A DNA stretch of 64,000 bases from a virus (IMGVR_UViG_3300036768_001501:1-64000), one strand, 5' to 3'. Shown: positions 6,381 to 62,471, counted from the first letter of the stretch. Made by a program: numbers and translations. The notes: a model not told the origin generated them from the letters alone.

Positions 6381-6434
6381 AGCGACCTCCTTGGTGTGAA
6401 CTTAGACTCGCGATTTGAGATTGCAAGAGAAGAT

Positions 6435-6626
6435 TTAGCTTAAATTAATAGTCTGAATCCCATAGACCCTGCCAAAACCGACAACAATATCGCCAGCGCG
6501 AATCGAGCTTGCCGTAACGGTGCTCTTTTCGTTGCTACAGCGGTCATTGAAGACATCCAGCTTATCTGCTGGGTCCAGCAAGATTGCACGATCATTCTTT
6601 CCAATCACTAGAATTCGCCTTTTCAT
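6435..6626 (-). CDS. Hypothetical protein
   Basis: 63 aa with AGGAG RBS, coupled within the minus-strand operon. Confidence 0.6.
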   Translation of the reverse strand: MKRRILVIGKNDRAILLDPADKLDVFNDRCSNEKSTVTASSIRAGDIVVGFGRVYGIQTINLS

Positions 6627-20182: not shown

Positions 20183-20185
20183 CCG

Positions 20186-22812: not shown

Positions 22813-22869
22813 GCACTTAAGTTGCAATTTCTGTTGCATGGCTCAGCTTTTGAGCTATGCAACAGTGCC

Positions 22870-46233: not shown

Positions 46234-47748
46234 ATGCAGTTTGTGGTTTCCCTGTACTCCAGCCGAGCGATCGCTATGCCCGCAATGCGGGCGTATGAGG
46301 ATATTGAGACGTATGGCACCGTCCTGGCTGGGGTATCCCCAGGGAAACTGAAGACCGGCGAGCCAGTGCTTCCAATTCTAGCCGCGAATCCGGTCATTGT
46401 GCGTGAGATTAGTGTTTCAAGAAGGCAATCAATTGATGCCTCTGTGTCTATAGACATCTATCACACTGGGCTTGAGATTATAGATAAAGCGCGCGATGAC
46501 TATCTACGTGTGCGCATCTATGCTGCCAAGTATGATGGGACAGACGTTACGCTCCTAGACCCAGTTTTTGATGGGAGCGTTATCAATATAGCATCATCTA
46601 GGGGGCGCGGAATCATCACAATCGATGCCTCCGAGTACGATGACCGCATCGGCTCTATGTTCCCGCCAGAGCTGATTACTCGTGCCGACTTCCCCGACGC
46701 CCCAGACCTTGTTGCTGGAACCCTGAATAGGCAGATTGTGATCGGCCCGTTCCAGTACCCGATACCGGCAAGGCAAGTGGATCGCGATGGGCGTGTATTC
46801 TACATTTGCGACCCGCCGCTTTCTACTCCGCCTGCAATTGTATACGCCGACGGTAGGCTTGTGCCATCTAACAGTTACAGCTTTTTCGCTGGTCGGATGC
46901 AGAACAGCGGACTTGAGTACACTGGTCTGTTGTTCTCTCGCCCAGTGTCCGAAGTTGTTGGCAAGCCAGTGCAGTACGTGACCGTTTCGCATGGGCAAGG
47001 TATGCGCGCATCTAACGCGATTGAAGCACTGGCGCGCGTCTCTGGTATTGGTATTACGAGGCGGTTGACTGCGCTTGCGAAGGATATGGAAAGCGATTTT
47101 CCGATGTCCATCCTTCTCAATAAGCGCGATAATGCCTTCTCGATTCTCACCAAGCGCATTCTTCCGCAAACTCCATACATTACGCGCATGTACCTGGGCC
47201 TAGTTGATATTGTAGATGCGAATTTCAACAACTCACCAGTGGCTGAAATTCAGCCAGGAAATGGTTGGATTTCAGGACAGATTGGCGTTAGCCGCGCTGG
47301 TTTCGGCGATGTTGTCAATAACCTGCAGGTGAACGTTGGTATGACGCATCATGGCGGTCCGGCTCTGAGAAGGCCGCTCATGCAGATTGTCCGCAATGCG
47401 ACAAACGGACCGTACAATTTGCGCTCCATTGCAAGCCGCTCTCAATCAATCTACGGCCCGCGCGCACTCACAATTGATGCTGGTGATCTCATAGTGTACT
47501 GGGGACCTAATGGGCAGCCAATCAGTCCATCGGGGGAGCGACTGGCGAATTATATCATTCAGCACAGCGCCTTTGAGGGCGTGCGGTACACATACGCATG
47601 TTCAGATGATGCCCTTACAGTACTTAGTCTCGGTGACGTAGTGGAGTTAACAGACCCGCTGGTTGCCGAATCGACCGTGCGGGCCATAGTTGTAAGACAG
47701 GAGTTCAGCAGTGCTCCGACGATTACTTTTGAGCATATTTTTGCTTAG
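46234..47748 (+). CDS. Baseplate hub/tail tip protein
   Basis: VFDGSV, ITRADFPDAP, SQSIYG, LSLGDVVELTD pattern, and position. Confidence 0.7.
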   Translation: MQFVVSLYSSRAIAMPAMRAYEDIETYGTVLAGVSPGKLKTGEPVLPILAANPVIVREISVSRRQSIDASVSIDIYHTGLEIIDKARDDYLRVRIYAAKYDGTDVTLLDPVFDGSVINIASSRGRGIITIDASEYDDRIGSMFPPELITRADFPDAPDLVAGTLNRQIVIGPFQYPIPARQVDRDGRVFYICDPPLSTPPAIVYADGRLVPSNSYSFFAGRMQNSGLEYTGLLFSRPVSEVVGKPVQYVTVSHGQGMRASNAIEALARVSGIGITRRLTALAKDMESDFPMSILLNKRDNAFSILTKRILPQTPYITRMYLGLVDIVDANFNNSPVAEIQPGNGWISGQIGVSRAGFGDVVNNLQVNVGMTHHGGPALRRPLMQIVRNATNGPYNLRSIASRSQSIYGPRALTIDAGDLIVYWGPNGQPISPSGERLANYIIQHSAFEGVRYTYACSDDALTVLSLGDVVELTDPLVAESTVRAIVVRQEFSSAPTITFEHIFA

Positions 47749-48097
47749 TTTGCCGGCGCACGCGCAGGTCAAGCCGCCAGCTATTGGCGACATTATGATG
47801 TCGTCGCCGGATGTCAGGAATTTGACAGAATCCTGCGTGCTGGCATTTTCCAAGCAAAAGAGGCAGTTTATCTGCGCGATCCGGATAGATGTTCAACTTT
47901 CTCCAGGGCGTGAAACACTTGTGTTCAATCCTTATGTTACTCAAGATAAGAAAGTCCTATGCGGTTGTGCGTACGGCTGTAACCCACAGGGTATGGTGCT
48001 CGGGTACTATTCGGTGTCCAATGTAGATAATGGCGGATTCAAAATTGACCACGCCTATGCAATTGGGAACGAAAAGATTAGTTGTATTGTGTATTAG
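47711..48097 (+). CDS. Exported small Cys-containing protein
   Basis: Signal peptide MLRRLLLSIFLLSLPAHA|Q. C-terminal beta domain ends GFKI..ISCIVY. Confidence 0.7.
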   Translation: MLRRLLLSIFLLSLPAHAQVKPPAIGDIMMSSPDVRNLTESCVLAFSKQKRQFICAIRIDVQLSPGRETLVFNPYVTQDKKVLCGCAYGCNPQGMVLGYYSVSNVDNGGFKIDHAYAIGNEKISCIVY

Positions 48098-48136
48098 CAG
48101 CATGGTAAAATAGCGGCACTAAGAGAGAGGTAATCG

Positions 48137-48445
48137 ATGGCACCCGAAACCCGCGACGCAATTGCTATCGCAATTATCTGGTTGCTGATGCAGCTTCTTA
48201 AGGTTGCCAAGCGAAAGTTTGGGGATCGTGTGCCTGTCCTGAAGGGCATTGATGAGGATCAGCTTAAGAAGTTAATTCCTATTCTCTCCCTACTTTTGGC
48301 TGGTGGTGGGTACGCGGCTGGCGCACTAGACGACCCACAGAGTGCAGTGGCTGTTGGTGGTTTGGCTGTAGCGGCCAACGAGGTTGGCAAGGCGACGGGT
48401 CGTCTAGTGCGCTCTATTGCTGGGAAGCCAAATGACCAACAATGA
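48137..48445 (+). CDS. Putative holin
   Basis: 102 aa with 2-3 hydrophobic segments, immediately before the endolysin. Confidence 0.7.
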   Translation: MAPETRDAIAIAIIWLLMQLLKVAKRKFGDRVPVLKGIDEDQLKKLIPILSLLLAGGGYAAGALDDPQSAVAVGGLAVAANEVGKATGRLVRSIAGKPNDQQ

Positions 48446-48878
48446 ATACCTGCTCCTTCTCACCCTTGATGAGCTTGCTTTACTGCGCGGCCTTATCGCT
48501 GGCGAGGCCGAGGGGGAGCCGTACGTCGGCCAGGTGGCTGTGGCGTACGTCGCAAAAAACCGTGTCAAATATTCAAAGCAGGCCCTGGTTCCCTGGTGGC
48601 CCAGGAGCCTTAAGCAAGTCATTCTCCAGAAGCACCAGTTTTCCTGTTTTTGGGAAGACTGGGACAAAAGACGCAAAATCATTCTTGAGGCCATTCATTC
48701 GCCGGAGAAGTACCAGAGGATCGATATGGCCGCGAAGGATGCTTACTATGAGCGGCTTCCTGACCCGACCCTGGGGGCGGATCATTACTTTTCCATCAAT
48801 ATTAAGCTGCCAAAGTGGGTAAAGTCAATGACGAAAACAGTGAGAATTGGGCGCCATGAATTCTACAAGTCAATCTAG
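48432..48878 (+). CDS. Endolysin, SleB/Hydrolase_2-family cell wall hydrolase
   Basis: GEAEGEPYVGQVAVAYVAKNRV, VILQKHQFSCF, GADHYF, IGRHEFY. Confidence 0.92.
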   Translation: MTNNEYLLLLTLDELALLRGLIAGEAEGEPYVGQVAVAYVAKNRVKYSKQALVPWWPRSLKQVILQKHQFSCFWEDWDKRRKIILEAIHSPEKYQRIDMAAKDAYYERLPDPTLGADHYFSINIKLPKWVKSMTKTVRIGRHEFYKSI

Positions 48879-49266
48879 TGGTACTAAGACAAGGAAGAGG
48901 GGAAACGGCAGGTCCTGCGCCGAGATTGAGGTGCTAGCTAACCGCCTTGACATGCTAGAGAAGACTGTTGAGGGGCTGGCGCACTTGTCTCAGCAGATTG
49001 CCGAGATGTCGGCACAGATGAACGGCATCAAGGCGGATTTGTCGCGGCTGATTCTCCATGTGGAGAATCCAGCAAGCGCTGATCGTTCTCTGATTGTTCG
49101 GATCAAGAGCGTGGAAGATAAACTGTCATCTATTGAAGATACCATTGGGAAAGCTAGTGATTTTGCTCGTCAGGTTGGCGTTAGACTGCTTGTGTACTTT
49201 ATTGCTGGCATGGTGAGCGGCGGGGCTACGATTGCTGCCGTCCTGAAAGTACTTGCGGAGCACTGA
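48847..49266 (+). CDS. Coiled-coil protein with C-terminal transmembrane helix (lysis accessory-like)
   Basis: Heptad coiled coil followed by LLVYFIAGMVSGGATIAAVL, directly after the endolysin. Confidence 0.65.
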   Translation: MGAMNSTSQSSGTKTRKRGNGRSCAEIEVLANRLDMLEKTVEGLAHLSQQIAEMSAQMNGIKADLSRLILHVENPASADRSLIVRIKSVEDKLSSIEDTIGKASDFARQVGVRLLVYFIAGMVSGGATIAAVLKVLAEH

Positions 49267-49268
49267 GC

Positions 49269-50084
49269 ATGAGGAGAATCCTGGGATTAGCTCTAGGCGT
49301 ATTTCTTTTGCTTACCACGCGGGTGGCAAGTGCGCAGATTTATTATTTGATGCCTGGGGACTTGGTTCCTGCTTCTAGTGTTGCGCCAATTAATTTTCAA
49401 ATTGTTGATCCAACATTCAATGGCGTAACGGTGAATGGGCGGAGTCGTTGGCCGTATGCGCAAACAGGGTTTATGGCAAATGCATATCAGTCTGGATCGC
49501 CGAATTTTGATGACGCGACCAACTACGATTACGGTGTTATGTTCGTGGTGCATCCTGAATTTGTTGGTCGTGATGATTCTTCAACCTTCCCGACAGTCGT
49601 GATTAAAGAAAGAGTGGTTTTCTTTTCGCTGGGAAACGCTGCAAGCTCATTTTCCCCACAGTATGTGTGTTTTAAGTTTCGCTACCAATGGATCAATGAC
49701 GGCTCCTCTATTAATGAAGCAAACAACTTTCGACCTGCGTCTGGATGGGGAGATAGCACTAATTGCGTGGATATAACAAATAAGCCTGCGCGTGAAATGA
49801 TTAAAAGCGTGGTGACTATTCCAACTACAGTGATTGATGCAGCAACCAGTGGCAGTTGTACGCCTGGTACTACGCGGTGTCCACGCGGGACGTTAATCGG
49901 ACACATTTATCGTATACGCGCTAACGACATGTGTGGAGGTTCTGGTACACCATTTACCTGTTGCACTGGCAATGGCACTGGAAACTGTTGCGATGGGCCA
50001 TCTAACAGCGCAACAGCATGTAACATTCAACAAGAAAGCGTGCCAATCTGGGGCGTGAAGCTAGTTGTTGATGGTGGCCTATGA
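49269..50084 (+). CDS. Exported Cys-rich beta-sandwich protein
   Basis: Signal peptide ending VASA|Q. CGGSGTPFTCCTGNGTGNCC; ends VPIWGVKLVVD. Confidence 0.8.
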   Translation: MRRILGLALGVFLLLTTRVASAQIYYLMPGDLVPASSVAPINFQIVDPTFNGVTVNGRSRWPYAQTGFMANAYQSGSPNFDDATNYDYGVMFVVHPEFVGRDDSSTFPTVVIKERVVFFSLGNAASSFSPQYVCFKFRYQWINDGSSINEANNFRPASGWGDSTNCVDITNKPAREMIKSVVTIPTTVIDAATSGSCTPGTTRCPRGTLIGHIYRIRANDMCGGSGTPFTCCTGNGTGNCCDGPSNSATACNIQQESVPIWGVKLVVDGGL

Positions 50085-50770
50085 CTACGGTGCGTGCTTT
50101 TGCAATTTTACTTTGTATATTTCTGTTGCCAGCCGGAGTTAATGCGCAGCTTGCTTACGGCAAGGGCTTCGTGCCGGCGACTGCTCTTTTCCCCTCTTCC
50201 GGAACATCGTGTACTCTACAGAGTTCCATTGGGGACAATACGGTTAAGAACAGAACATACTGGTGGAGCTGCACTGTCGGTAGCTCAACCACGGCGCGGT
50301 TCTCCTTTGTATCACCAGCGCTTGGGGCGACTTATGGGCAAGCTGCCGTTGCTGTGCGGATTATGAACTCCAACACGGCAGCGAAGGACATTTGCGCGGT
50401 TTTTTCTAGCCATGCCTACTTTTCGGCTGGCGCATTGCAAGTGAACCAGACGGGTTCAAACTGGCGTAATACCGCATGGACCGGCGGCTCATTGGGGAAC
50501 GCCCAACAGGTAACAATTTCTGCAAACACAACTCCGTGGTTGCTAATGGCAGCGCCGTCTGCGTCTGCCGCTGGCCCATCAATCATTGATGTTATGAACG
50601 CTTCCCCATCCCCAGCTTCGTCGGCAAATGAAATTGTTGTTCGTGAGGTAATCATTGGTGGGTGCAGCAACTTTTGTAGCGGGACAACACCGCCTACATG
50701 CTGTAACCCTAGTAGTTGCTCTTCAGACTATTCAGGTACGGTGAGAATCTATGGGGTTCATTTTTACTAA
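50081..50770 (+). CDS. Exported Cys-rich beta-sandwich protein (paralog)
   Basis: Signal peptide ending GVNA|Q. GCSNFCS..TCC..SSC; ends GTVRIYGVHFY. Confidence 0.8.
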   Translation: MTTVRAFAILLCIFLLPAGVNAQLAYGKGFVPATALFPSSGTSCTLQSSIGDNTVKNRTYWWSCTVGSSTTARFSFVSPALGATYGQAAVAVRIMNSNTAAKDICAVFSSHAYFSAGALQVNQTGSNWRNTAWTGGSLGNAQQVTISANTTPWLLMAAPSASAAGPSIIDVMNASPSPASSANEIVVREVIIGGCSNFCSGTTPPTCCNPSSCSSDYSGTVRIYGVHFY

Positions 50771-51470
50771 TGCAGTTGCGTTGCTGTTTTTGGCCAGCGT
50801 GGCTCAGGCCATCAGCTATACGTACACTTATGGCCCACAGTCTCTGATTGTGCAGCCAATGCTGGACGGCTCTACGGACGCTCCGAGTGATTGCGTATTG
50901 ATCAATGACACTTTAGTTGCTGGCACGACCAGCCCTCATGCGCGCGTTCTGTACTGTAGGAATAATGAGGACCAGAACAATGAAGGTGTTTTTGGCATTC
51001 ATGGGATTGTGCCAGTAGGGGCTACGCGCTTTGATATTATCGTTGATGTATACTCAGAGAGTGCTTCTAGTGGAAATCTTTGCGCTGTGGTGAACAATAC
51101 GGTCATTGCGCAGTGGGCTTTTACCGACGCTGGTATAAAGCAGGGGGTGCGATACGATAGTGGGCCGGATGACTCTTTTGTGTCTGGCCTTTCTGGTGTT
51201 CTTGGCCCAGTTGCGGTGTCTGGAGCCAAAAGGCGCGTAAAGTTGAGCGCTAATAATGTGCAGTTGGCTTACATTGATAGTATTGGCAATCGCCAATACT
51301 GCGGTGGTACGATATGCAATGAGCAGTACTTCCGCATGGAAGTGTACATTCAGGGATGCCAGAGGCTTTGTTCGTTTGTATCCCCGCAATTTTCATGTTG
51401 CGGCACTAGCTCATGTACCGATATTGGCAAAGTAAAAGTCCTTGGCGTGACCCTGAATTTACATGACTAA
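50751..51470 (+). CDS. Exported Cys-rich beta-sandwich protein (paralog)
   Basis: Signal peptide ending VAQA|I. GCQRLCS..SCC..SSC; ends GKVKVLGVTLNL. Confidence 0.8.
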   Translation: MGFIFTNAVALLFLASVAQAISYTYTYGPQSLIVQPMLDGSTDAPSDCVLINDTLVAGTTSPHARVLYCRNNEDQNNEGVFGIHGIVPVGATRFDIIVDVYSESASSGNLCAVVNNTVIAQWAFTDAGIKQGVRYDSGPDDSFVSGLSGVLGPVAVSGAKRRVKLSANNVQLAYIDSIGNRQYCGGTICNEQYFRMEVYIQGCQRLCSFVSPQFSCCGTSSCTDIGKVKVLGVTLNLHD

Positions 51471-51488
51471 GGTTTACGGGGATGCGGT

Positions 51489-54400
51489 TTGTGGCTTGGT
51501 GTAGCAACACTATTGGCGATTTTCTCGTTGGCAACCAGTGCGCTTGCGCAGCAAGCGCAAACTGCCGTTCAATTATCTGGGGGTCCAAACACTCAATCTT
51601 ATATTGAACTTCCTGGTAGCGTCACCTACCATAGCAGTACAGGGATTTCGCTTTCCGCCTGGATCAAGTGGGATGGGAAGCGCTATTCTGGAGCTAGCGA
51701 GGCCGACTGGATGTCGGTCATATTCAAGGGGAATTTTAGCTCCGGTGCTTATGGTATTCTAATTAGCCGCTCCGACAGCAATAGCTCCAACGAGATTCGC
51801 TGTTACTACGGCTCTGGTGCTTATGTATCTTACGCTGTAACAAGTGGTCTTGATACTAACTGGCACCATATCGCGTGTACCATTGCGCCAAGTCCTAGTA
51901 ATAACGTCAAGATATACCTAGACGGCTCTGTTGTTGCGAACCAGGCCGTTACTTTTTCCATTACTGACAATACTGCTTGGCCACTCCGCATTGGTGGTCA
52001 TAACGGTTCACAGTACTATTATTTCGGCGGCCTGATTGATGATGTACGTATCCACAGTTCTGCTGTAGCGTCGACCGAGATTTCCGGCTTTTACAATAGC
52101 GGCAATGGTACGTGCCAAAATACAGGCGCTTTGTCTTTCTATTATCCTCTGGACGGTCATGGCACGAACATGGTTGGGACAAGCGGGGATTATACAAATA
52201 TTGTCAATGCGTCCTGGTCACCGAGCGGGAAACTTGATTGTCGTGGCGGTAAGTTCGGTCGCGATTCGGCTGGCACAGAGACAACAACATACTTGGAGTT
52301 AGCCGATTCCACTTCGCTTGACCCGTCCACGACCATGACCGTTGAGGCGTGGTTCAAGTGGGACGGCGCTACGGCAGGTGCGCCAAACGACTGGATGTCG
52401 ATTGTCTCCAAGGGGACATATAGCAGCGGCGAGTATGTCATTCTCATGAACCGCGCATCTAATACGTCTCAGCGCGAGCTGCGTTGTTATTTCACCAACA
52501 GCTATGTAAGTACTTATGTTCCTGTTGATCTGCTGACGAGCTGGAACTACGTTGCCTGCACTCGCAACTCCTCCCAGATGAAGATTTATCTAAACGGGCA
52601 GCTTATGAGCACAGTGACGGCCCCGGCCTCGCAAGCAAACAATACGTCGCCATTGCGTATTGGCGTCCAGTCCGATGGCGGGTATCGGTTTGTCGGCCTG
52701 ATTGACGATGTGCGCGTTTATAATTCCGAGCTCAGTGCTTATGATATTTACCGTAGGTACAACATGGGTGGTGGTCCATGCGACGTATCTACGTCAGCAA
52801 ATCCGTTCTTTGTTGCCACGCTAAATGGCGGGCGTAGAGTAGCGGTTGGTACTAGTGGCACGCCGACGCTTGCAACTCTGTCTTCAACATCACCGCTTTG
52901 GGATACTGGTATTGTGCCGTGCGCCGATATTCCAGACCAGATTGCTGGCGGGCAGGAGATTCAGTTTACCCCAACGCCGACCAGAACACCAACGAACACG
53001 CATACACCTAGCCGTACTCCAACCAATACCCCCACGAACACACCAACTAACACCCCGACATTTACACCAACGAGAACCAATACTCCGACAAACACACCAA
53101 CTAGTACTCCAACCCCAACCGTAACTCCACTCGGCGGCGGTCAGGAAGTGCAATTCACTAGCACGCCAACTAGGACCCCGACTAACACACCGACTAACAC
53201 GCCTACATTCACGCACACGCATACACCAACCAACACCCCTACGAATACACCAACTAATACTCACACAAATACACCAACTAATACTCCCACAAGGACGCCG
53301 ACGAACACACCTACGAACACGCCAACAAGCACTCCTACTCCCACGGTGACTCCACTTGGTGGTGGACAAGAGGTTCAATTCACTAGTACCCCGACAAGAA
53401 CACCAACTAATACGTCCACTCAAACACCAACTAACACGCCCACTCGCACGCCAACCCACACGCCAACTAACACACCAACATTTACATTTACAAATACTCC
53501 AACCAGAACACCAACGAATACACCTACGAACACTCCGACAAACACACCAACTAGTACTCCAACCCCAACCGTAACTCCACTCGGCGGCGGTCAGGAAGTG
53601 CAATTCACTAGCACGCCAACTAGGACCCCGACTAACACACCGACTCGCACGCCGACTAACACGCCAACTAGGACATCAACAAGCACTCCAACCAATACTC
53701 CAACCAGCACGCCGACTTCAACCTCAACGCGAACTTATACCCCGACTAACACGCCGACCAGTACGCCGACCCCTACGGTTACCCCGCTCGGCGGCGGGCA
53801 GGAGGTTCAGTTCACAGCTACTCCCACACGTACCCCGACCGGGACGCCGACTAACACGCCGACCGGTACACCGACTTACACCCCAACGCGGACGCCCACA
53901 AACACGCCAACAAATACTCCAACAAATACGCCCACCCAGACATCGACGCAGACACCAACGCCGACCGTAACCCCACTAGGTGGCGGGCAGGAGATTCAGT
54001 TCACAGCTACCCCTACCAGGACTTATACCAGAACCCAGACCATGACGCCGACCGTGACTAATACCGTAACTCCAACCAGGACCAGTACGCCAACCATTAC
54101 GCCAACTAGTACTCCAACCCCAACCGTAACCCCACTCGGTGGTGGTCAGGAAGTGCAGTTCACCAGCACCCCGACAAGGACCCCGACAAATACGCCCACT
54201 CGAACACCAACAAACACTAGCACCGTTACACCGACACGAACGCCTACCCCAACATCAAGCCCAACTACTACGGTAACCAGTACTAGTACGCCAACAGTTA
54301 CCCCGACGCCAACGGCGACTCCACTAGGTGGTGGTCAGGAAATTCAGTTTACCGCTACGCCTACGCGCACTTTCACCCCAAGCATTACACCTACCGGAAC

Positions 54401-55313
54401 CATTCCGCCCTCAAGCACACCAACCAGGACACAAACACCGAGCAATACTCCAACGGTAACACCTACGCCCACCCAAACACCGCTCGGTGGCGGGCAGGAG
54501 ATTCAGTTCACAGCTACCCCTACCAGGACTTATACGTTTACTCCAAGCCCATCTCACACTGCTACATTTACCCCGACAGATACTCCAACTGGTCAACCCA
54601 CAAGTACGCCCACACGCACGCCAACGTCGACTGTTACCGGACTGCCAACGAATACACCAACTGCAACTCCAACTCCGACAGTTACGCCGCTCGGCGGTGG
54701 GCAAGAGGTGCAGTTTACCCCAACTCGTACAGCAACTGGCACACCTACGCCTACATCTACGCTAACGCCGACTGGCACTCCAACTGATACGGCAACGCCA
54801 ACGCCCACCCCGCTTTATTCTTATACACCTACGCCGCTCGCTACCCCAACACCATCGCCTTTAGGTGGCGGTCAAGAGGTGCAGTTTACGCCAACCAGAA
54901 CCGTTACGCCCACGCCTACAATGACCAACACAATGACCCCAACCCCAACGAATGTGCCGACCAGGACTCCGACTCCGACATTGCCTGGCACTTATACACC
55001 TACGCCCATCACGACGCCGACCCCGAAGCGCGAAGAGAAGGTCACCACGCACAGGCTGTTTGCGGACTGCGCTGACTTCACTACTCAGACCGGAGCCTGG
55101 GTGACTAGATATTTGACTTTCTCAAGACAGCCGTACGACGGTAGCGTTGCGTACTGCTGGCTACCTGGTGGCGGTGGTAGGATTATGTCAATGGATACCC
55201 GAATTACTTCCGCGCATGCATTCCTAACTATCGGAATTTACGCAACTAGGCCAGGCAATCCGCGATTACGGGCTTGCTGTCTGATTTACAGTTCCGAGCA
55301 GAGGTTTGAATGA
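51489..55313 (+). CDS. Exported adhesin-like protein: two LamG domains, mucin-like Thr-Pro stalk and Cys-containing C-terminal domain
   Basis: Signal peptide ending SALA|Q. Two LamG repeats ([33 protein letters not shown]), then about 700 aa of Thr/Pro repeats. Confidence 0.9.
52940..55030 (+). repeat. Coding Thr-Pro repeat region with 11 GG(G)QE(V/I)QFT nodes
   Basis: Direct count in the translation. Includes an identical 114-bp copy at 53082-53195 and 53532-53645. Confidence 0.95.
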
Positions 55314-55328
55314 TTTTGGTTGCCTTTA

Positions 55329-55337
55329 TGATATAAT
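55329..55337 (+). promoter_or_regulatory. Extended -10 promoter inside the exported-protein cluster
   Basis: TGaTATAAT in the intergenic gap, upstream of AGGAG and ATG 55359. Confidence 0.6.
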
Positions 55338-55358
55338 CAAATGCAACAGGAGAGTACC

Positions 55359-56429
55359 ATGAAGAGAGCAATTTTGGCCCTAGCTCTTATGTTTGTAGCT
55401 TCTATTTCTCGTGCTGCCTGGCGCGAGGAGGTGAACGGCATCAATGGCGTGCCGATGCCGTCGCGCATGACGCAGTTTGACGTAGATGACAATGGTGATA
55501 TTTATGTAGCCCAAACGTCGTTTACCGCTGACCGGCACGGCCTTGCTGTTGTGAGGCGCATCCACAACCGTATCTCCGACGTTGTGTTTGCCTATGAAAC
55601 CAGGGCAACGGGAATTGGTTGCACCGTGTTACTGGATATTCGGAACGGCCATAAGCTTGTCTATTTCATGTGCAGTAGCAGCGAACGTGGGGTTTACGAC
55701 ATTGACGCAGGTACGACTAACCCAGTTCCGTACCTGAATCAGCCAATGCGCATGCTGGCACTGAACGACGGACTGTATTTTTCGCCATACGCCCAGCTTG
55801 TGAAGTTGGCGGACGGAACGTTGTCAACAGTGTTTGGTAGCGGGACTCGGTTCGCTTGCGATTCCTCCGGTACCGATGCTCCACTCATCAGCTCTATGGC
55901 CTATCTAAATAAGTGGTATTTTGCTGAAACTGCTTGTTATGGGATCGGATCGCTTTGGCGCCTGAACGGCAGGGGCGCGGAGCGGATTACCAGCTTTACC
56001 GGCGCACAACCAAGTGTTGGACAAAGTATAATCGGAAGCAAAGTGCAGTCACCCGCTCTTGATGGTCGCGGCAATCTCTTGGCCGTACTGGATCGCGCTA
56101 CGTCAACAGTTTATCTTTTGGGCGAAGACCTGGTTGTGACAGGAGCCGTTGACTCTGTGCCGGTTTCTTCTGGTTCGTTTGCGCGCGTAATTCTCGGGCC
56201 ACGTCGTGTGTACGTGCTGGACGTGCAGCGGGAGACTATCTATTCGGAACAGATTCCTGGCATGCCGGAGCCGACCAACACGCCTGAGGTTCCTACGGCC
56301 ACGCCGACAAGTCCACCGGTTCCAACGAACACGCCAGAGCCAACCGCGACAGTGCCTGCACCTGTGTGTCCGGCTGCGGTTTGTGATGCACTAAGATCAG
56401 CCGCAACGCTTTGCGGGTGTAACTTGTAA
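55359..56429 (+). CDS. Exported beta-propeller-like protein with Pro/Thr tail
   Basis: Signal peptide MKRAILALALMFVASISRA|A. NHL-like FDVDDNGDIYVA and RVYVLD; PT linker and Cys-rich end. Confidence 0.75.
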   Translation: MKRAILALALMFVASISRAAWREEVNGINGVPMPSRMTQFDVDDNGDIYVAQTSFTADRHGLAVVRRIHNRISDVVFAYETRATGIGCTVLLDIRNGHKLVYFMCSSSERGVYDIDAGTTNPVPYLNQPMRMLALNDGLYFSPYAQLVKLADGTLSTVFGSGTRFACDSSGTDAPLISSMAYLNKWYFAETACYGIGSLWRLNGRGAERITSFTGAQPSVGQSIIGSKVQSPALDGRGNLLAVLDRATSTVYLLGEDLVVTGAVDSVPVSSGSFARVILGPRRVYVLDVQRETIYSEQIPGMPEPTNTPEVPTATPTSPPVPTNTPEPTATVPAPVCPAAVCDALRSAATLCGCNL

Positions 56430-56448
56430 GTCAAGAAGGAGCTCAGGC

Positions 56449-56940
56449 ATGGTGTACGTGCTTCTCGTGTGTTCGTGGCTGTTCACTAGCGTTGCTTATG
56501 CACAAGCAGATCGTGGCCTCGGGATTCAGACAGCGGCTACGCCAACCGCCGTGATTGATGCGCATTGTTATAACTATAACGGGGAACAAAGGTGCGCTGA
56601 CAAGATTATTGATTCCCCACGCTGGAACCGCATCTACCAAGGCCCATTTGTAGGCGGTACTCCTGGTACGCCTACACCGGCGATACCACCAACACCGACG
56701 GTTGGGGCTGGTACGCCAACGCCTATTCCTGCTTCCTGGTGCTACTGTTGCGCTAGGGGTCCGACACCTAATACGGGGCGAGTCTTGGTGTCCGTTGGTC
56801 CACAACCGTGGGGTGGCCCTGGTATTTATTTATCGGACTCGGATTGCGTGCGCTATCCCGCTCCGGCAACAGGTGATTGTTCCAACTTGTACGTAACCAG
56901 GCAGAACGTAGGAGACTACGTACGATGCGACATGCAGTAA
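56449..56940 (+). CDS. Exported Pro/Thr/Cys-rich protein
   Basis: AAGGAG RBS. Signal peptide ending VAYA|Q, PT linker, paired Cys. Confidence 0.75.
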   Translation: MVYVLLVCSWLFTSVAYAQADRGLGIQTAATPTAVIDAHCYNYNGEQRCADKIIDSPRWNRIYQGPFVGGTPGTPTPAIPPTPTVGAGTPTPIPASWCYCCARGPTPNTGRVLVSVGPQPWGGPGIYLSDSDCVRYPAPATGDCSNLYVTRQNVGDYVRCDMQ

Positions 56941-59900
56941 TCTCAATTGGGCTTGTCGGCCTAATGTGCGCGCTTGTTGTCAACGCGCAGCCGCGCGTAG
57001 ATGATGCCTACTCAGATAGCGAAGCACGCAGATCGATTCAGGCCTCTCCACCACTATCTTATGATTCTTCCACTGGCACAATGTCATTACCGCAAACCGT
57101 ATGGCCGCTTACTTGGGGCGGCACGAATAACGGGGCACTTACAGATAGCCCAACTGGACAGGTTCTGCGTGTAGTTGGCGGCCAGGTCGTTAATGCACCA
57201 GTTCCGCAAGCTGATATTGCGAGTGCGTTCGCCCTGTATGTTGACCCAGCCGGTACCGATGGCCCCGAGTGTGGCCCAATCAACAAACCGTGTAAAACGA
57301 TTACAGGGCCGCAGGGTGTGCATGCGCGGATTCTGGCGAATAATGACAATGGGGCTTTTACATGTTCTAACGACAATGCCAAAAGTTGCATGCGCTGTGC
57401 TGGCGGTACGAATTCAGGGGCGACATGCAACGAGCATCGCGATTGTACCGGAGGCGGTGTGTGTTCAACGCTTGTGTGCAGTGGTACGGATACACCATGC
57501 ATGAAATACTGTTCAACGAGCGATATTGGCTGCTCAATTGACAATGATTGCCCATCGAATGAAACATGTTCCCGTACTCATCCGTCGTCACCGTGTGCAG
57601 CGGCATCATGTGTCAATGGCCCCAGGAGTTGGTGCGGTGGTGGTGCATGTAATATATTCGCAACTAAGACCTATGCGATTAACTTAGCTGTAGGCCAGTA
57701 CAATGAATGGATTGGCTTTGCGTGCCAAGGAAATCAGAATATCCAATGCCACACCGATGCGGACTGCGGAGCGAACGGTCCATGTATTGATACAACAGTA
57801 AAATCTATTCCATCCCCTGGCTGGCTTACGTACATTGGGCCAGATCGGCAATCGGCGGCAATTATTTCTGGATCAAGCATTGCAACGATGTATGTTTCCA
57901 ACAGGCTTACCCTCGCGTTTCGGCGTTTGCAAATAATAAATGTCGGCAACGGAAACGCGTTATGGTTTGCTGGTGATGTGTGGGGCGCGGGCGTAACACA
58001 TAGCGGGCTAGTTCACTGGGGTGACGGATACGATGCCATTATTTCTGGCCCAGGCAATGTTACAGTAGGTTTTGACGATATTTGGACGTACGGTTTTAGC
58101 TCAAATGCTTCATTTCGCTCTATTCGCATTGAGCACGACAGCGCACTGGTATGTGCTAATAACACGCAATTTTCATGTTTGTCCGATGCTGATTGTCCGG
58201 GGTCATCGTGTGTTAAGAATAGGCGTTTTGGGTCAAGCGGCGCGATCCAATCTGTTATATCTCCACGTGCATCCGGTGGATCTGGTGACTCTATAATTGA
58301 TTTTGCATTTATTCAGGGAGGATCTAAAGTAACAGCAGATTATCAAGGGCAAGTTGAGTTTGTGTTTAATCGTTGTGCTAGTGGCTTTAACACTGGCATT
58401 GTGCGCAGCTTGATTAATGGATTCTCGTTCCCATCGCCGTACAAACATGCCGCTTTGGTAGCTATTCGTGGTCCATGCCAGTCAAACAATGCTTTCATAT
58501 CTGGAGGTATATCCCAGGTGTCAGTACGAGATACAACTTTTGCGAAGTTGCGTTCGATTCCAGATAGGTCGCCGTTGTACGATATGATTATTGGTGACAA
58601 AGTTGATATGCTCTATGCTGGCAACGTCGCGTATAATGCCTGCCGTCGGCGCTTCGAGGGCACGGGCACGATTAGATATATTGACCCGAACGCCAGGACC
58701 ACTGATCTTGGCCAGCGCTGGGGAGGCAATGCTGGCGGTTATCTTGGGGTGCTTGACTGTGACCAACCGCAGACCACAACGCTTGCTTCGCCGACAGTGA
58801 CACTCTCGCAAACTACGGGCGGTACACTTAGCAATGGGACTTACTGTTATCGCGCGACCGCTGTGAGCGAGTTCGGGGAAACTGTCGCCGGCGATGCTGC
58901 ATGTATCACGCTTAGCGGCTGCAGTTCGAATTGCGCCGTGGCAATTACGGTGAACCAGGTTCATGGTGCCACTGGGTGGAAGATTTACGGACGACCGACT
59001 ACATCCGGAGGCACGTTCGGGCTTTTGCAGACGCTCTCTAGCTGGTCGTCGAATACATGGACGGATACTGGTGGTGGCACACCTGGCGCTGCACCGCCTA
59101 GTACAGATAGCTCTGCGCAACCGAATCCTATCGATGGCGAACTGTGGATGTCCAAGGTTGGCACGCGATATATCCCACGTTACCGTTCCGGTGGCACAAC
59201 TTATTCGATTCCAATCGGGCAAACCGGTGATGGGACTAACAACGGCGGTACGGTTGGATTTTTTACGCCTGACGGAACGCAGTTCGCGTCAATTTTAGAC
59301 GTACCAGCTTTTTCCTTTACGCTATATCAAACTAATCGCGCCACTGTAGGTATTGGTATTAATGGCACCGGCCTGCTGTCATGTAGTACTTTTGATAGTA
59401 ACAGATGCTCAGTTCCCAATGCCCCAATCTCGGCGAACCATATAGCCAACAAGTCGTATGTGGATACGAGCAAGCGTACGCTCCTGCTTTCGCCGATGGC
59501 ATTCACTGCTGCTACGGCCTGCACGCAGGATGTTGTCGCACCAAGTGGGAATACCCCAGGATATAGTTATCTTTCCTGCCCTGATGCCGCCGGGTCGGAA
59601 TTCTCGGTCGTTTTTTCCATGCCAGACGGATGGTCAGGGTCAGCGCTTGCAGTAGCGCCTGTTGCGTTACATCGCGATTCCGCGAGCAACACGCTTGCGA
59701 TTGATTGGAGTTGTAAGTGTGTTTCCTCGGGGTCTGCGATTACCGCTGCCTATGGCACGACGGCTACGACGTCGCAAACGGCATCGAGTGCAGATACTGT
59801 GACGCAGGCCACGTTCACTAATATTACCTGTGCGGGTACATGTAGTGGCACGTCAACTGTGGCGTTGCGTGGAGTTGTGAATACTACCAGCAGTAGCTGG

Positions 59901-59963
59901 ACCAACGATCCGCGCATTCTCGGGGTAGAGGTGCGGTATGATCGGTCGGCGCATTCTGACTAG
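56925..59963 (+). CDS. Exported tail-fibre/tailspike-like protein (beta-helix, Cys-rich repeats, FN3-like domain, C-terminal beta-sandwich)
   Basis: AGGAG RBS and ATG 56925. Signal peptide MRHAVISIGLVGLMCALVVNA|Q. LYVDPAGTD..CG..KPCKTI beta-helix cap, CxxDxDC repeats, fibre-like motifs PLTWGGT and HIANKSYVD. Confidence 0.8.
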   Translation: MRHAVISIGLVGLMCALVVNAQPRVDDAYSDSEARRSIQASPPLSYDSSTGTMSLPQTVWPLTWGGTNNGALTDSPTGQVLRVVGGQVVNAPVPQADIASAFALYVDPAGTDGPECGPINKPCKTITGPQGVHARILANNDNGAFTCSNDNAKSCMRCAGGTNSGATCNEHRDCTGGGVCSTLVCSGTDTPCMKYCSTSDIGCSIDNDCPSNETCSRTHPSSPCAAASCVNGPRSWCGGGACNIFATKTYAINLAVGQYNEWIGFACQGNQNIQCHTDADCGANGPCIDTTVKSIPSPGWLTYIGPDRQSAAIISGSSIATMYVSNRLTLAFRRLQIINVGNGNALWFAGDVWGAGVTHSGLVHWGDGYDAIISGPGNVTVGFDDIWTYGFSSNASFRSIRIEHDSALVCANNTQFSCLSDADCPGSSCVKNRRFGSSGAIQSVISPRASGGSGDSIIDFAFIQGGSKVTADYQGQVEFVFNRCASGFNTGIVRSLINGFSFPSPYKHAALVAIRGPCQSNNAFISGGISQVSVRDTTFAKLRSIPDRSPLYDMIIGDKVDMLYAGNVAYNACRRRFEGTGTIRYIDPNARTTDLGQRWGGNAGGYLGVLDCDQPQTTTLASPTVTLSQTTGGTLSNGTYCYRATAVSEFGETVAGDAACITLSGCSSNCAVAITVNQVHGATGWKIYGRPTTSGGTFGLLQTLSSWSSNTWTDTGGGTPGAAPPSTDSSAQPNPIDGELWMSKVGTRYIPRYRSGGTTYSIPIGQTGDGTNNGGTVGFFTPDGTQFASILDVPAFSFTLYQTNRATVGIGINGTGLLSCSTFDSNRCSVPNAPISANHIANKSYVDTSKRTLLLSPMAFTAATACTQDVVAPSGNTPGYSYLSCPDAAGSEFSVVFSMPDGWSGSALAVAPVALHRDSASNTLAIDWSCKCVSSGSAITAAYGTTATTSQTASSADTVTQATFTNITCAGTCSGTSTVALRGVVNTTSSSWTNDPRILGVEVRYDRSAHSD

Positions 59964-60657
59964 TGTTGCGTGCCTGTCACTCGTGTCCAGCGAGGCACTA
60001 GCCTACACGTACTTGCAGGTCTGCAACGCCGGAAGCACAACCTTTACTACGTCCATAAGTTGTAGTGGCAATGTTCCCGGCATGGGGGCGGTCGTTGTTG
60101 CTCATTCTTCTGATAATACCTCCGGATACAGTATTACATCATCATGGGCAAGCGCCAGCCCCTTGAGTAGTACACTTGAGGTCAACAATGGCGCTAATCT
60201 TGATGGAGTTGGGCGAACATTCAGTGTGCCGTCTGCAGCAACTGGAGCAGCATGGTCAGGTTCTTTTACGGATAGTGTACGTGTCAAAAACATATGCGTT
60301 GCGCATATAGCACACACGAGGGTTTTCAATCTGACTCAAACACAAACAGCGACTGGTAGCGGCACGACTGTCTCTGTGCCTGCAGCCACTACGAGCTGCC
60401 CTTCTGGCTATACTATGGCAACGATTGTGTCTGTAATGACATACTCTGGCTCTGCGCCGACCTTATCGGGCACTGGGACGCAACTCTGCGGCATAGATAA
60501 CTTTGTCTCCTCGACGCATCGCGCCACATTCCAGCACGGGTACGATGGCAGCAATGCATTCAGTGGCACGCTGTCGGTATCTGCAACGTGGGTGGCGATA
60601 GCTTATCGTTTTTGCCCGAAACGCAACATAGCGGGGTGGATTGGGACAACTGACTGA
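59938..60657 (+). CDS. Exported Ser/Thr-rich beta protein
   Basis: Signal peptide ending EALA|Y. Resembles phage accessory beta-sandwich domains (ATWVAIA near the end). Confidence 0.75.
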   Translation: MIGRRILTSVACLSLVSSEALAYTYLQVCNAGSTTFTTSISCSGNVPGMGAVVVAHSSDNTSGYSITSSWASASPLSSTLEVNNGANLDGVGRTFSVPSAATGAAWSGSFTDSVRVKNICVAHIAHTRVFNLTQTQTATGSGTTVSVPAATTSCPSGYTMATIVSVMTYSGSAPTLSGTGTQLCGIDNFVSSTHRATFQHGYDGSNAFSGTLSVSATWVAIAYRFCPKRNIAGWIGTTD

Positions 60658-60668
60658 GGAGCAGATGA

Positions 60669-61751
60669 TTGAAGCGGGCGGTCGGGATACCGATTTGTGT
60701 CGTTGTGGCGCTAGCGATTTATGTTATTGCTACGCGCCCAAGCAAAGTTGGCGCTTATCCTCGTCCATTTTGGTTCGGTGCACCGACAAGTACGCCTACC
60801 CCTACCAATACCCCTACACATACCCCTACGGATACGCCAACGAACACCCCAACGAACACGCCCACCAGCACGCCAACGAACACCTCGACCCATACGCCCA
60901 CCTTGCCCCCCACAAGCACCCCAACCAATACTCCGACAAGCACGCCAACTTCAACACCAACGCGAACTTATACCCCGACCAGCACGCCGACTAATACGCC
61001 GACGAGTATCCCTACAGAGACACCGACTAACACGCCAACAAATACGCCAACACCTACGTCTACGCCGATTGGCGGCGGACAAGAAGTACAGTTTACCGCT
61101 ACACCGACAAGGACACCGACGAGTACAAGCACCAGTACGTCTACAGGAACTCCAACATATTCACCAACGCCTACAGCATCTCCGACATATACTTTTACGC
61201 CTACCGCTACCCCAACAGCCACGCCAACACTCGGGCCGAACGACTGCTGTGAGTGGCTTGAGTCCGGCACATGGCAGGCCTGCGCAATTCCAGTGGCCGG
61301 CATTTGTCCTACAGGGGCAACTGGCGTGTACGGTGCCAGGTGCGTTGACGGCGTATGTTCAACAACGCCAATTGGGAACTGTCCACCGACGCCAACGCGC
61401 ACACCGACACCAACGGAGACACCAATTGAGGTTGGCGGCGGATCAACGTTCGGCAATACATATCCGCGTGAGGAGATTGTTACAACGTATCGGCTGCAGA
61501 ACGGCTGCATAAATATAACAGTAAGCGGTTCGTCTACGGCTGTGTTCTACGTTCCGCCCAACGTCCCTGTTCCAAATTTGTCATCTTATGTAGTACACTG
61601 TAGTGTGTCTGGCAATCAGTATCTAAGCGTTGACGAGATTGCGATGGTAACCGACAGTTACGCAGTGGTTTGGGTTTCGAACGCATCGGCCTCGATGCAG
61701 GGAGGACAACTATGTTGTCTCTTCTACAATCAATCGCAGTTATATCCTTAA
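60669..61751 (+). CDS. Exported or membrane-anchored mucin-like protein, partial paralog of 51489..55313
   Basis: N-terminal hydrophobic signal, Thr-Pro repeats with GGGQEVQFT, Cys module [14 protein letters not shown]-terminal [15 protein letters not shown]. Confidence 0.85.
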
Positions 61752-62134
61752 TGCTTCTTGCCTCCTGCCGCGCTATTGAGTTCAACGATAGCAGCAGGAA
61801 CGTAGTCTACGAGAAGTTCGGTGGTTTTGTCCCCTGCCTGCTTGACCAGGATGCGGACAATCTCAGATGGTGCGAGATGGACATGATTGGTGCTGTCGGG
61901 TTTCATGTCCTGATGGACCCAAGCGGGAACTCCGTGCTCTCCGCAACTGATACTTATAAGATCGAGTACGCGCCAAATCCATCCGAAGGGCGTGCGCCAC
62001 TTTGTCTTGGCAAGCCGTTATCGTGGAAGAATCGTTATATAATTCCTGCCGGGTACGTATTCTCTATTGGCAGCAAGGTTTTTGTGCCGTGTAGCATCGG
62101 CGGTACGCAGCTATATGGGAAAATTGTGGATTAG
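61712..62134 (+). CDS. Putative lipoprotein
   Basis: GGAGG RBS and ATG 61712. Hydrophobic stretch ending in lipobox LLAS|C. Confidence 0.65.
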
Positions 62135-62150: not shown

Positions 62151-62471
62151 ATGAAAAAGGCCGCTGAGTATGTTGTTTGGCTCCTTAAGCTCGCGGCCAT
62201 GATCATTCTGCTAGTGCCTGGAATTTGCCTTGTCTATGTAGGCAAGCAACTTTGCGAAGCCGCTAGATGGCTTGGCAAGGGCAACACAAAACAGATCACC
62301 GGCAAGCATGTAACTAGAACTGTCAAAAAAATATGTACAAAATGCGCAGGATACGGTTACTACGGACAGGAAACGTGCTATAAGTGTGACGGGACCGGCG
62401 AAATCTGGACTTCAGTCAGTTGGTACGTGGTTAACGGGTACGTTGACGATGCTGAGCGCGTTGACATCTAG
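62151..62471 (+). CDS. Membrane protein with DnaJ-type zinc finger
   Basis: N-terminal transmembrane helix; CTKCAGYG..CYKCDGTG. Confidence 0.7.
   Translation: MKKAAEYVVWLLKLAAMIILLVPGICLVYVGKQLCEAARWLGKGNTKQITGKHVTRTVKKICTKCAGYGYYGQETCYKCDGTGEIWTSVSWYVVNGYVDDAERVDI

Follow-up and report, generated by a model that had tools for sequence, protein, structure and literature searches.

A block of eleven putatively exported, cysteine-rich proteins around the lysis genes of an uncultured long-tailed phage

An uncultured long-tailed phage from microbial mats encodes, after its tape-measure gene and around its lysis genes, a block of eleven proteins that, judging from their sequences, are almost certainly exported and disulfide-bonded and would therefore mature outside the cytoplasm. 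The best reading of this block, given a rough probability of 0.45, is an exported accessory set that acts outside the cytoplasm; it builds on the leaders of the proteins and their conservation, even cysteine numbers, LamG domains, the mobility of a gene cassette and purifying selection. The window, the whole 64,000-nt stretch that was analysed, belongs to a 91.5-kb record which is about 90% complete. The first-pass annotation had proposed that exported proteins replace the tail fibres of this phage and either join the virion or coat the host cell. The export part of this proposal held, whereas replacement of the fibres and joining of the virion are put in doubt by two signal-less tip candidates ahead of the block, by the occurrence of a cassette of the block together with another tip protein, and by the presence of a lipoprotein. 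The genes from the tape measure to the end of the block are listed below; a slash marks the predicted leader cleavage site, the numbered proteins are those predicted to be exported, and their cysteines are counted in the mature protein.

29417..41140, + strand: tape-measure-like giant protein, 3907 aa, 0 Cys, without leader
41144..46231, + strand: signal-less orphan, 1695 aa, 3' of the tape measure; may form the tail tip or bind the receptor
46234..47748, + strand: signal-less orphan, 504 aa, last gene ahead of the exported block
47711..48097, + strand: protein 1, 128 aa; leader AHA/Q; 6 Cys; 38-nt overlap with the end of the 504-aa gene
48137..48445, + strand: putative holin-like small membrane protein, 2 hydrophobic/TM segments, beside the endolysin
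48417..48878, + strand: endolysin, SleB-type cell-wall hydrolase without leader (PF07486 Hydrolase_2, 67 bits; phrog_938 endolysin, 3.6e-18)
48847..49266, + strand: coiled-coil protein with C-terminal TM (residue 112), weakly XhlA/'hemolysin'-like lysis accessory (phrog_937, 2.5e-4)
49269..50084, + strand: protein 2, 271 aa; ASA/Q; 10 Cys; founder of a small Cys-knot beta-sandwich family
50081..50770, + strand: protein 3, 229 aa; VNA/Q; 8 Cys; paralogous to proteins 2 and 4 in the Cys knot at the C-terminus and the final strand
50751..51470, + strand: protein 4, 239 aa; AQA/I or SVA/Q; 10 Cys; paralog (BLASTP 3e-4 against protein 3)
51489..55313, + strand: protein 5, 1274 aa; ALA/Q; 12 Cys; two LamG, Thr/Pro stalk, Cys-containing C-terminal domain of ~95 aa
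55359..56429, + strand: protein 6, 356 aa; SRA/A; 8 Cys; short PT linker, Cys-rich tail
56449..56940, + strand: protein 7, 163 aa; AYA/Q; 8 Cys; opens the shared cassette
56925..59963, + strand: protein 8, 1012 aa; VNA/Q; 42 Cys; fibre/spike-like
59938..60657, + strand: protein 9, 239 aa; ALA/Y; 6 Cys; centre hypervariable between strains
60669..61751, + strand: protein 10, 360 aa, exported or membrane-anchored; long leader/anchor VGA/Y; 11 Cys; PT stalk with one node
61712..62134, + strand: lipoprotein 11, 140 aa; lipobox L-A-S-C; 4 additional Cys; 40-nt overlap with the 3' end of the protein 10 gene

The 3907-aa protein has weak matches to PHROG tape-measure families (phrog_167, 1.2e-5, and phrog_1538). 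Following it, the 1695-aa orphan contains 2-3 Asp-box-like motifs, among them those at residues 633 and 1232, and has no match in Pfam, PHROG, PDB or the phage collection; the 504-aa orphan has no family match, and its relatives form one cluster only, at 96% identity. These two leaderless proteins are candidates for the tail tip or the receptor binder. The earlier statement that no signal-less fibre gene is visible thus agrees with the other 27.5 kb of the genome, where no large structural ORF was found, but not with this pair of candidates. In the lysis cassette, the endolysin is secured by Hydrolase_2, and the assignments of the holin-like ORF, which has no family match, and of the XhlA-like protein are weaker.

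All eleven ORFs claimed to be exported were found at their proposed starts, with a GGAG/AGGAG-like motif 5-11 nt upstream at most of them; lipoprotein 11 has GGGAGG 5-10 nt 5' of its ATG. Nine leaders are of the SPase-I type, defined by a positive n-region, a hydrophobic core of 7-15 residues and small residues at -3 and -1. The ORF at 61712 closes its leader with L-L-A-S-C, a lipobox of the form [LVI][ASTVI][GAS]C, and that at 60669 has a long leader or anchor with an 18-residue hydrophobic core before the VGA/Y. Leaders were called with a crude hydrophobicity and -3,-1 script and by eye; the script flagged 9 of the 11, and those at 56925 (read by the script from an upstream TTG), 56449 and 61712 (outside its gene list) were called by eye. 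Every one of the eleven non-lysis ORFs at 47.7-62.1 kb has a leader, while the remainder of the 91.5-kb genome has about 3 among 86 ORFs (Fisher p = 4e-12). Distant homologs keep leaders of their own, including P0013 (33% identity), P0020 and three homologs of protein 2 (P0015, 56%; P0016, 32%; P0019), and a 33% identical homolog of protein 6 in the contig L003 has a leader ending in AGA/Q. The mature N-terminus is conserved directly past the predicted cut, for example as Q-(I/T)-Y-Y-L. Gln occupies +1 in 6 of the 9 SPase-I proteins, or 7 of 9 with cleavage of protein 4 behind SVA, an excess with p = 2e-5 assuming an 8% background, and it recurs at +1 in P0015, P0016 and the homologs from L002-L004. 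In Bacteroidota most SPase-I substrates have Gln at +1, which is known as the Q-rule (PMC5837995). The pattern seen here matches this rule. A type IX secretion C-terminal domain (Por_Secre_tail or gliding CTD) was searched for in NCBIfam and Pfam, with no match at E up to 1-5.

The claim that the proteins are Cys-rich was borne out, with 2.4-5.5% Cys in the mature proteins compared with 1.37% for the remaining proteome, except for the long LamG/stalk protein 5 at 1.0%. Recognised virion proteins have 0-1.3%, and the portal, like the tape-measure-like protein, has none. Cys numbers are even in all nine SPase-I proteins (p = 0.002), and lipoprotein 11 has four beyond the lipid Cys; protein 10 has an odd number. 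Because of the clustering, the leaders kept at 32-56% identity, the even Cys numbers and Gln at +1, export of the eleven proteins is very probably real. Together with purifying selection in the annotated frames, the same evidence upholds the claim of export with disulfides. The further suggestion of glycans fared less well, the Bacteroidota O-glycosylation sequon showing no excess.

The content of the block is lectin- or adhesin-like, with a pair of LamG domains, a node-bearing Thr/Pro stalk, small Cys-knot beta-sandwiches and a large fibre/spike-like protein. Among the domains proposed earlier, LamG was confirmed in protein 5 by PF13385 (Laminin_G_3; two copies, 167 bits against a cut-off of 27.6), while the beta-helix, propeller and fibre motifs found no family-model match and are leads only, the beta-helix of protein 8 included. 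No biochemical activity is backed by a family model apart from LamG, and tail-fibre, tailspike and receptor-binding families gave no Pfam or PHROG match at E up to 5. The stalk of protein 5 spans ~700 aa with 40% Thr and 20% Pro, and its nodes are ten exact copies of PLGGGQE(V/I)QFT and one degenerate copy; proteins 5 and 10 share their C-terminal domain (2e-6). Protein 8 consists of Cys-rich modules, a strand-rich middle, an FN3-like domain and a C-terminal beta-sandwich, and its residues 620-709 match a 'baseplate protein' of Xanthomonas jumbo phages through this 88-aa FN3-like domain. The structural comparison proposed earlier, here with AF2 and Foldseek, gave little: two models had pLDDT of 50 and 31, and no Foldseek match fell below 1e-3, the non-significant top row being Bdellovibrio Bd1399. 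The model of TafC, a haloarchaeal fimbrial subunit (PMC11821415), was rejected as a Tat-fimbria assignment (NF052521), scoring 83 bits against a curated cut-off of 410 over the LamG part only. Separately, a distant match, P0022, has a leader, fibre repeats and a CC-T-G-x-G-T-G-x-C knot as in the exported proteins, and its end looks by eye like a candidate chaperone of the endosialidase type.

The genes of proteins 10 and 11 overlap, in the anchor/lipobox order of a spanin pair; such a pair combines a type-II membrane protein that forms a coiled coil in the periplasm with a small Pro-rich lipoprotein of the outer membrane, encoded by overlapping genes. Protein 10, however, is built as a PT stalk plus a Cys domain, and lipoprotein 11, absent from L002-L004, is globular with 122 aa.

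The search for the same synteny in related contigs recovered the segment at 56.5-61.0 kb. This 4.5-kb cassette is ~81% identical at the nucleotide level in an unrelated ~34-kb phage lineage (L002-L004), whose other genes do not match this phage. In that lineage a signal-less LamG/Phage-tail_3 tip protein and an endolysin lie upstream of the cassette, and the tape measure is likewise the lineage's own. The cassette recombines between unrelated phages in one mat community, and its summed contig depth in two mat runs is 3-4x that of its flanks. In this lineage protein 7 is 86-88% identical with its leader and all Cys retained, the N-terminal ~40 aa of protein 10 are conserved and the remainder is replaced, and lipoprotein 11 is missing. 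Substitutions by codon position are 19/13/70 for protein 7 and 106/46/359 for protein 8; changes fall mostly at third positions, showing purifying selection in the annotated frames. Protein 8 is most conserved in its N-terminal 240 residues, and its homolog P0013 aligns across 94%. Proteins 8 and 9 contain segments that are hypervariable at the strain level, and in the protein 9 region a segment (60056-60472) is replaced in mat contigs. A genome self-BLAST for a DGR signature found no repeat that connects the exported block with the RT region at 76-78 kb.

Under the accessory-set reading, late co-expression, compartment and function are inferred as follows. No promoter or terminator signal of the block's own rises above chance, and this, with the common strand and the gene overlaps, suggests late co-transcription. 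The late operon would yield eleven Sec-exported proteins, comprising nine SPase-I substrates, one lipoprotein and one with a long leader or anchor. They would cross the host inner membrane, lose their leaders, most then exposing an N-terminal Gln, and form disulfides outside the cytoplasm; export would be used because such extracellular proteins need disulfides. In the late phase they may gather in the host's periplasm or cell envelope and work in place or once the cell has lysed, staying separate from the virion assembled in the cytoplasm. Such an accessory set might bind or process glycans of the host surface or the matrix (receptor masking or destruction), keep progeny off debris, or serve adhesion in the mat. 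Lipoprotein 11 and the possibly anchored protein 10 count in favour of this reading, and the lack of an integrase or resolvase fits a late, lytic-cycle role.

The main rival, an unlikely one on balance, holds that some or all of the exported proteins are the true fibres or adhesins, receptor-binding gear that matures in the periplasm and docks on a fibre-less tail tip at holin opening or after lysis. Several of the points that suggest it also weigh against the accessory set: the block follows the tape measure and tip candidates and surrounds the lysis genes, the usual place of receptor-binding genes, and no other recognisable fibre is present in the record. Its content is fibre- or lectin-like, including LamG, the beta-helix leads and an FN3-like domain common to phage baseplate proteins, and hypervariable patches and cassette exchange are typical of receptor-binding proteins as well. 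Leader-bearing virion proteins may exist, since in the Cellulophaga phage phi46:3 Q-rule leaders occur on four proteins (gp079-gp082) annotated as structural by similarity to phi18:3 gp85-87. The latter were reportedly found by virion mass spectrometry. Against docking, the set includes a lipoprotein and a possible membrane anchor, and receptor binding may already fall to the leaderless 1695-aa protein. The docking partner is also unclear because the cassette, including the conserved N-terminal 240 residues of protein 8, is common to phages with unrelated tail-tip proteins; the ~34-kb lineage already has a signal-less tip protein, and no docking domain is shared between the exported proteins and the tail genes.

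A lysogenic-conversion or moron block, in which prophage-made proteins remodel the lysogen surface as a coat or for superinfection exclusion or adhesion, is quite improbable. Exported phage proteins are known (lambda Lom and Bor, T5 Llp and Porphyromonas prophage genes), and the end of a late operon beside lysis genes is a common moron site. The lysogen surface coat offered earlier as an alternative is nevertheless weakened, for PF00589 (integrase) and PF00239 (serine recombinase) are absent from the 91.5-kb record and PF00589 from two related records (83% and 29% complete). The phage also has a DnaB-like helicase, primase, RecA and SbcCD of its own, a set that is commoner in virulent phages, and the block lacks the separate promoter or terminator signal noted above. 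It is highly improbable that the leaders are non-functional, whether as N-termini that are hydrophobic by chance, through misplaced starts, or as segments that stay uncleaved and serve assembly in the cytoplasm: the crude calling, the possible anchor of protein 10 and the downstream in-frame starts of several genes are outweighed by leader position and type kept in distant homologs, SD-like sites before the leader-including starts, the conserved residues past the cut, even Cys numbers and enriched Gln at +1.

Among known systems, gp079-gp083 of the Cellulophaga podophage phi46:3 (KC821622) resemble the block as consecutive late genes with Sec leaders followed by Gln (...YS/Q, ...SA/Q, ...NA/Q), located beside virion genes. 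They have no sequence similarity to the exported proteins and 0-4 Cys each, and phi46:3 is short-tailed with a known Bacteroidota host, whereas the phage described here is long-tailed. Lambda Lom and Bor and T5 Llp are exported phage moron or exclusion proteins. Such proteins, like those of the block, have Sec or lipoprotein signals; they act in the host envelope, as the block proteins may, and their genes often lie beside tail-fibre or lysis genes. They are small, come singly or a few at a time and belong mostly to temperate phages, whereas the block comprises eleven lectin/fibre-like Cys-rich proteins over 14 kb (16% of the genome) with no integrase found. The Dit/Tal/receptor-binding proteins of siphoviruses, lambda J with its side fibres, and tailspike depolymerases share the place after the tape measure, and phage receptor-binding modules share LamG and FN3-like domains, mosaic exchange and hypervariable patches. 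Known phage fibres are without signal peptides and are assembled in the cytoplasm, while the block proteins carry leaders. Bacteria have exported fibre-like trimeric adhesins, such as the mosaic adhesive fibre proteins of Bdellovibrio, which likewise combine a signal peptide with a phage-fibre-like architecture outside the cytoplasm; these are cellular genes and not part of a phage late operon, and the likeness is a motif or weak fold lead. Signal-peptide genes of Porphyromonas gingivalis prophages, which also follow the Q-rule, have been read as envelope-related (PMC10367356).

The eleven open reading frames (ORFs) that form the block at 47.7-62.1 kb were all found at the starts given in the first-pass annotation (47711, 49269, 50081, 50751, 51489, 55359, 56449, 56925, 59938, 60669 and 61712; here proteins 1 to 11), most with GGAG/AGGAG-like sites 5-11 nt upstream, and its reading of their N-termini as signal-peptide-like was borne out. 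Nine are of the SPase-I type, with the n-h-c layout and small residues at -3/-1, while ORF 61712 carries the lipobox L-A-S-C. In ORF 60669 the hydrophobic core spans 18 residues and VGA↓Y comes after it, so that this N-terminus is possibly a long leader, possibly a signal anchor. The screen was a crude hydrophobicity and -3,-1 script, which flagged 9 of the 11; it read 56925 from an upstream TTG start and so missed it, 56449 and 61712 lay outside its gene list, and the leaders of these three were assigned by eye. Leader-like N-termini occur on 11/11 non-lysis ORFs of the block vs ~3/86 ORFs elsewhere (Fisher p = 4e-12).

Four independent lines indicate that these leaders are real, namely conservation in distant homologs, cysteine parity, glutamine after the cut and purifying selection. 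P0013, a homolog of protein 8 (1163 aa, 33% identical across 94% of its length), carries a textbook leader of its own, and leaders are present in all of the protein 2 homologs P0015, P0016, P0019 and P0020 (56%, 32% and lower identity), in which the mature N-terminus Q-(I/T)-Y-Y-L directly follows the predicted cut. Mature Cys counts are even in 9/9 SPase-I proteins (6, 10, 8, 10, 12, 8, 8, 42 and 6; p = 0.002) and the lipoprotein (61712) has four Cys beyond the lipid Cys, compared with none in the portal and a mean of 1.37% in the rest of the proteome; this parity and contrast are a signature of disulfide-bonded exported proteins. Gln stands at +1 of the predicted cut in 6-7 of the nine, and likewise in P0015, P0016 and the homologs of a cassette (56.5-61.0 kb) shared with other phages. 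This matches the Q-rule, described as specific to Bacteroidetes SPase-I substrates (PMC5837995), and is therefore also a lead to the host. Substitutions relative to three related loci, counted by codon position in the proposed frames, fall mainly on third positions in protein 7 (19/13/70), protein 8 (106/46/359) and protein 9 (31/16/98), a bias that marks purifying selection. Judged from sequence, the block proteins are very probably exported by functional leaders.

The IMG/VR record is a linear tailed-phage genome of 91,513 bp, estimated to be ~90% complete, and the window covers its first 64 kb. The head and tail genes lie upstream of the block:

15770-17344, large terminase
17354-18760, portal
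20186-21358, HK97-type capsid protein
29417-41140 (+), tape-measure-like ORF of 3907 aa, with weak tape-measure matches

The 3907-aa protein contains 0 Cys; should it be a genuine tape measure, an exceptionally long tail is implied. ARAGORN placed a tRNA-Ile (anticodon aat) inside this ORF at 33390-33484, probably a false call, and an antisense ORF of 392 aa at 20135-21313 (-), which entirely overlaps the capsid gene, is most likely a shadow ORF. The 3907-aa ORF is followed by two orphans without signal peptides, 1695 and 504 aa long, which gave no matches in Pfam, PHROG, PDB and phage-collection searches; the 1695-aa protein carries Asp-box-like motifs and found nothing in the ESM Atlas. The left arm encodes DnaB-like helicase, primase, RecA and SbcCD-like proteins. 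The SbcD-like nuclease lies upstream of the terminase at 13385-14551 (+), the SbcC-like ATPase between the head and tail genes at 22822-25044 (+), and RecA, which is near-bacterial, at 604-1632 (-); with RecA identities of 62-69% to many phyla, the host cannot be inferred from it. The final 27.5 kb of the genome holds no large structural ORF. Two further exported small proteins are encoded in the early region beyond the window, at genome positions 66674-67012 (-) and 67978-68394 (-), one with an SPase-I leader (…AHA↓D) and one with a lipobox (…L-G-C). Promoter and terminator scans stayed at chance level, and no RNA dataset was listed as containing the window stretch.

A lysis cassette is placed between the first and second exported genes. 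Its genes encode a holin-like protein in which two segments are hydrophobic, a leaderless SleB-type endolysin (Hydrolase_2), and a coiled-coil protein that has a membrane segment at the C-terminus and weak likeness to XhlA-type 'hemolysin' lysis proteins.

The block had been described as carrying LamG, beta-helix and propeller-like motifs. LamG is the sole confirmed domain, in two copies in protein 5 (PF13385, 167 bits); the beta-helix and propeller remain leads, with no family match even at E up to 5 and, for protein 8, ESM Atlas hits to pectate-lyase/beta-helix clusters that all score below 0.9. In protein 5, the LamG domains are followed by a stalk of ~700 residues (52940-55030; 40% Thr, 20% Pro) with ten exact PLGGGQE(V/I)QFT nodes, 53-75 residues apart, plus one degenerate copy. 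The 11-residue node is nearly invariant across these 10-11 copies, the Thr/Pro spacers vary, and a Cys-containing domain of ~95 residues closes the protein. Protein 10 has one node (61060-61100) and a C-terminal domain like that of protein 5 (pairwise E = 2e-6). Proteins 2-4 are diverged paralogs that have in common a conserved last strand and a knot, C…P-[FL]-x-C-C-x-G-x-G-[TS]-G-x-C. This knot is also present in further metagenomic proteins with leaders, among them the fibre-repeat protein P0022, whose C-terminal end, judged by eye alone, looked like the chaperone-of-endosialidase type. Protein 8 combines Cys-rich modules with a strand-rich middle part, and its FN3-like domain (88 residues) shares 44% identity with a portion of genes annotated 'baseplate protein' in Xanthomonas jumbo phages.

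Structure prediction added little. The AF2 models were poor (pLDDT 50.5 for protein 2, 31.3 for protein 8), and the proposed Foldseek search, run with the protein 2 model, gave no match below 1e-3 and only non-significant jelly-roll-type rows. PDB sequence searches were empty. The suggestion of glycans likewise gained nothing, as the Bacteroidota O-glycosylation sequon D-[ST]-[AILVMT] was observed 14 times vs 15.4 expected. T9SS cargo was rejected because the exported proteins have no T9SS C-terminal domain, DGR targeting because a template/variable repeat pair is absent, and a match to TafC proved to be LamG similarity only. Directly after the block, a gene at 62151-62471 (+) encodes 106 aa that begin with a hydrophobic segment and include a pair of DnaJ-type CxxCxGxG zinc fingers (PF00684, 3.6e-4), with weak likeness to antiterminator Q (phrog_127). 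The product may help folding while tethered to the membrane, or may be a regulator; positive charges follow the TM segment, which blurs the predicted topology.

Relatives are few. Both metagenome scans, the search of the genome collection with the protein-8 family, the viral scans with the 504-aa protein, P0015 and P0016, and the comparison of the head genes with phage-collection DNA returned no matches, and relatives of the 504-aa protein were found only at 96% identity. The protein-8 family search did yield three IMG/VR loci, L002-L004, mutually ~84-85% identical over their whole length. They represent a ~34-kb phage lineage with a gene order of its own: a tape-measure-like gene, an F5/8-type-C gene, a signal-less 1264-aa LamG/Phage-tail_3 protein, an endolysin and exported genes, followed on the opposite strand by early genes. 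The contig of L003 and L004, IMGVR_UViG_3300036768_000756 (68,186 bp), holds two copies of a ~33.7-kb phage unit, only ~85% identical; it probably represents either an assembly join between two strains or a concatemer that is heterogeneous.

The cassette at 56.5-61.0 kb is shared with L002-L004 at ~81% nucleotide identity, and nothing else is similar between the genomes. It takes in proteins 7-9 plus the N-terminal ~40 residues of protein 10; in these loci the PT stalks of the protein 10 homologs lack nodes, and their C-terminus differs. Protein 6, which adjoins the cassette, is just 33% identical to its L003 homolog, which retains a leader ending AGA↓Q. With an 81% cassette beside a 33% neighbour, both lineages seem to have carried the exported module for long and to have exchanged part of it recently. 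The window DNA is present in two microbial-mat metagenome runs, in which the summed contig depth of the cassette is 3-4 times that of its flanks. Strain variants in these runs replace a 415-nt segment inside protein 9 (60056-60472) and an 87-nt segment in protein 8 (59312-59400) with segments of the same length, diverged beyond alignment, which look like cassette-like hypervariable patches. The most conserved part of protein 8 is its N-terminal 240 residues.

The reading ranked first, with a probability of about 0.45, is a set of exported accessory proteins that act in the envelope or once the cell has lysed. Next comes docking to the virion at lysis, a tentative possibility in which fibres made in the periplasm attach as soon as the membrane is opened by the holin. 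The position of the block, its lectin/fibre-like content, the hypervariable patches, the lack of another recognisable fibre in the genome and the Q-rule leaders on annotated structural proteins of the cultured Cellulophaga phage phi46:3 all point to docking. However, the cassette with its conserved N-termini is also found in phages with unrelated tail-tip proteins, one of which already owns a conventional signal-less tip protein; the set includes a lipoprotein and a possible membrane anchor, and the 1695-aa signal-less protein with its Asp-box-like motifs may already be a receptor binder. A coat on the lysogen, or lysogenic conversion, is unlikely, weakened by the failure to find an integrase or resolvase in three records 90%, 83% and 29% complete (PF00589 in this and two related records, PF00239 in this one). 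Non-functional leaders are very improbable in view of the four lines that favour export.

A more specific form of docking, which we regard as doubtful, is that tailed phages infecting Q-rule hosts (probably Bacteroidota) divide the making of their host-recognition apparatus between two compartments. The cytoplasm would be the site of head and tail assembly, and the fibres, lectins and node-bearing Thr/Pro scaffold would be exported by Sec and disulfide-bonded in the periplasm. These parts would be clipped onto the tail tip only once the holin breaks the inner membrane, and the small Cys-knot proteins would dock at the PLGGGQE(V/I)QFT nodes.

In the textbook account, tailed phages are put together entirely in the cytoplasm, and the proteins that phages export are generally regarded as a few small morons. 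In this case, late proteins that are exported, disulfide-bonded and lectin/fibre-like would take up 16% of the genome of a probably virulent phage, and part of the block moves between unrelated phages. If they are virion parts, fibre assembly has a periplasmic branch, of which no description was found in the literature searched, and the prediction, expression (oxidising folding would be needed) and engineering of receptor-binding proteins would change. If not, they represent a large class of extracellular or envelope factors made by phages, which shape adsorption and contacts with the matrix in microbial mats. Gln at +1 may, in addition, mark the host phylum of uncultured phages, and such questions can be tested readily in cultured Cellulophaga phages.

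Lambda Lom, lambda Bor and T5 Llp are known examples of exported phage proteins. In the cultured Bacteroidota podophage phi46:3 (KC821622), the products of five adjacent genes at 344-8946, gp079-gp083, begin with a Sec leader that has Gln directly after it. The four products gp079-gp082 bear the annotation 'structural protein', assigned for their similarity to gp85-87 of phi18:3. The phi18:3 proteins were reportedly found in virions by mass spectrometry. Porphyromonas prophages also have Q-rule signal-peptide genes, which were read as envelope-related (PMC10367356). Unlike these known cases, the present block is a 14-kb, eleven-gene, Cys-rich, lectin/fibre-like set that occupies the receptor-binding position in a phage with no integrase found, and it is a new variant among known exported phage proteins.
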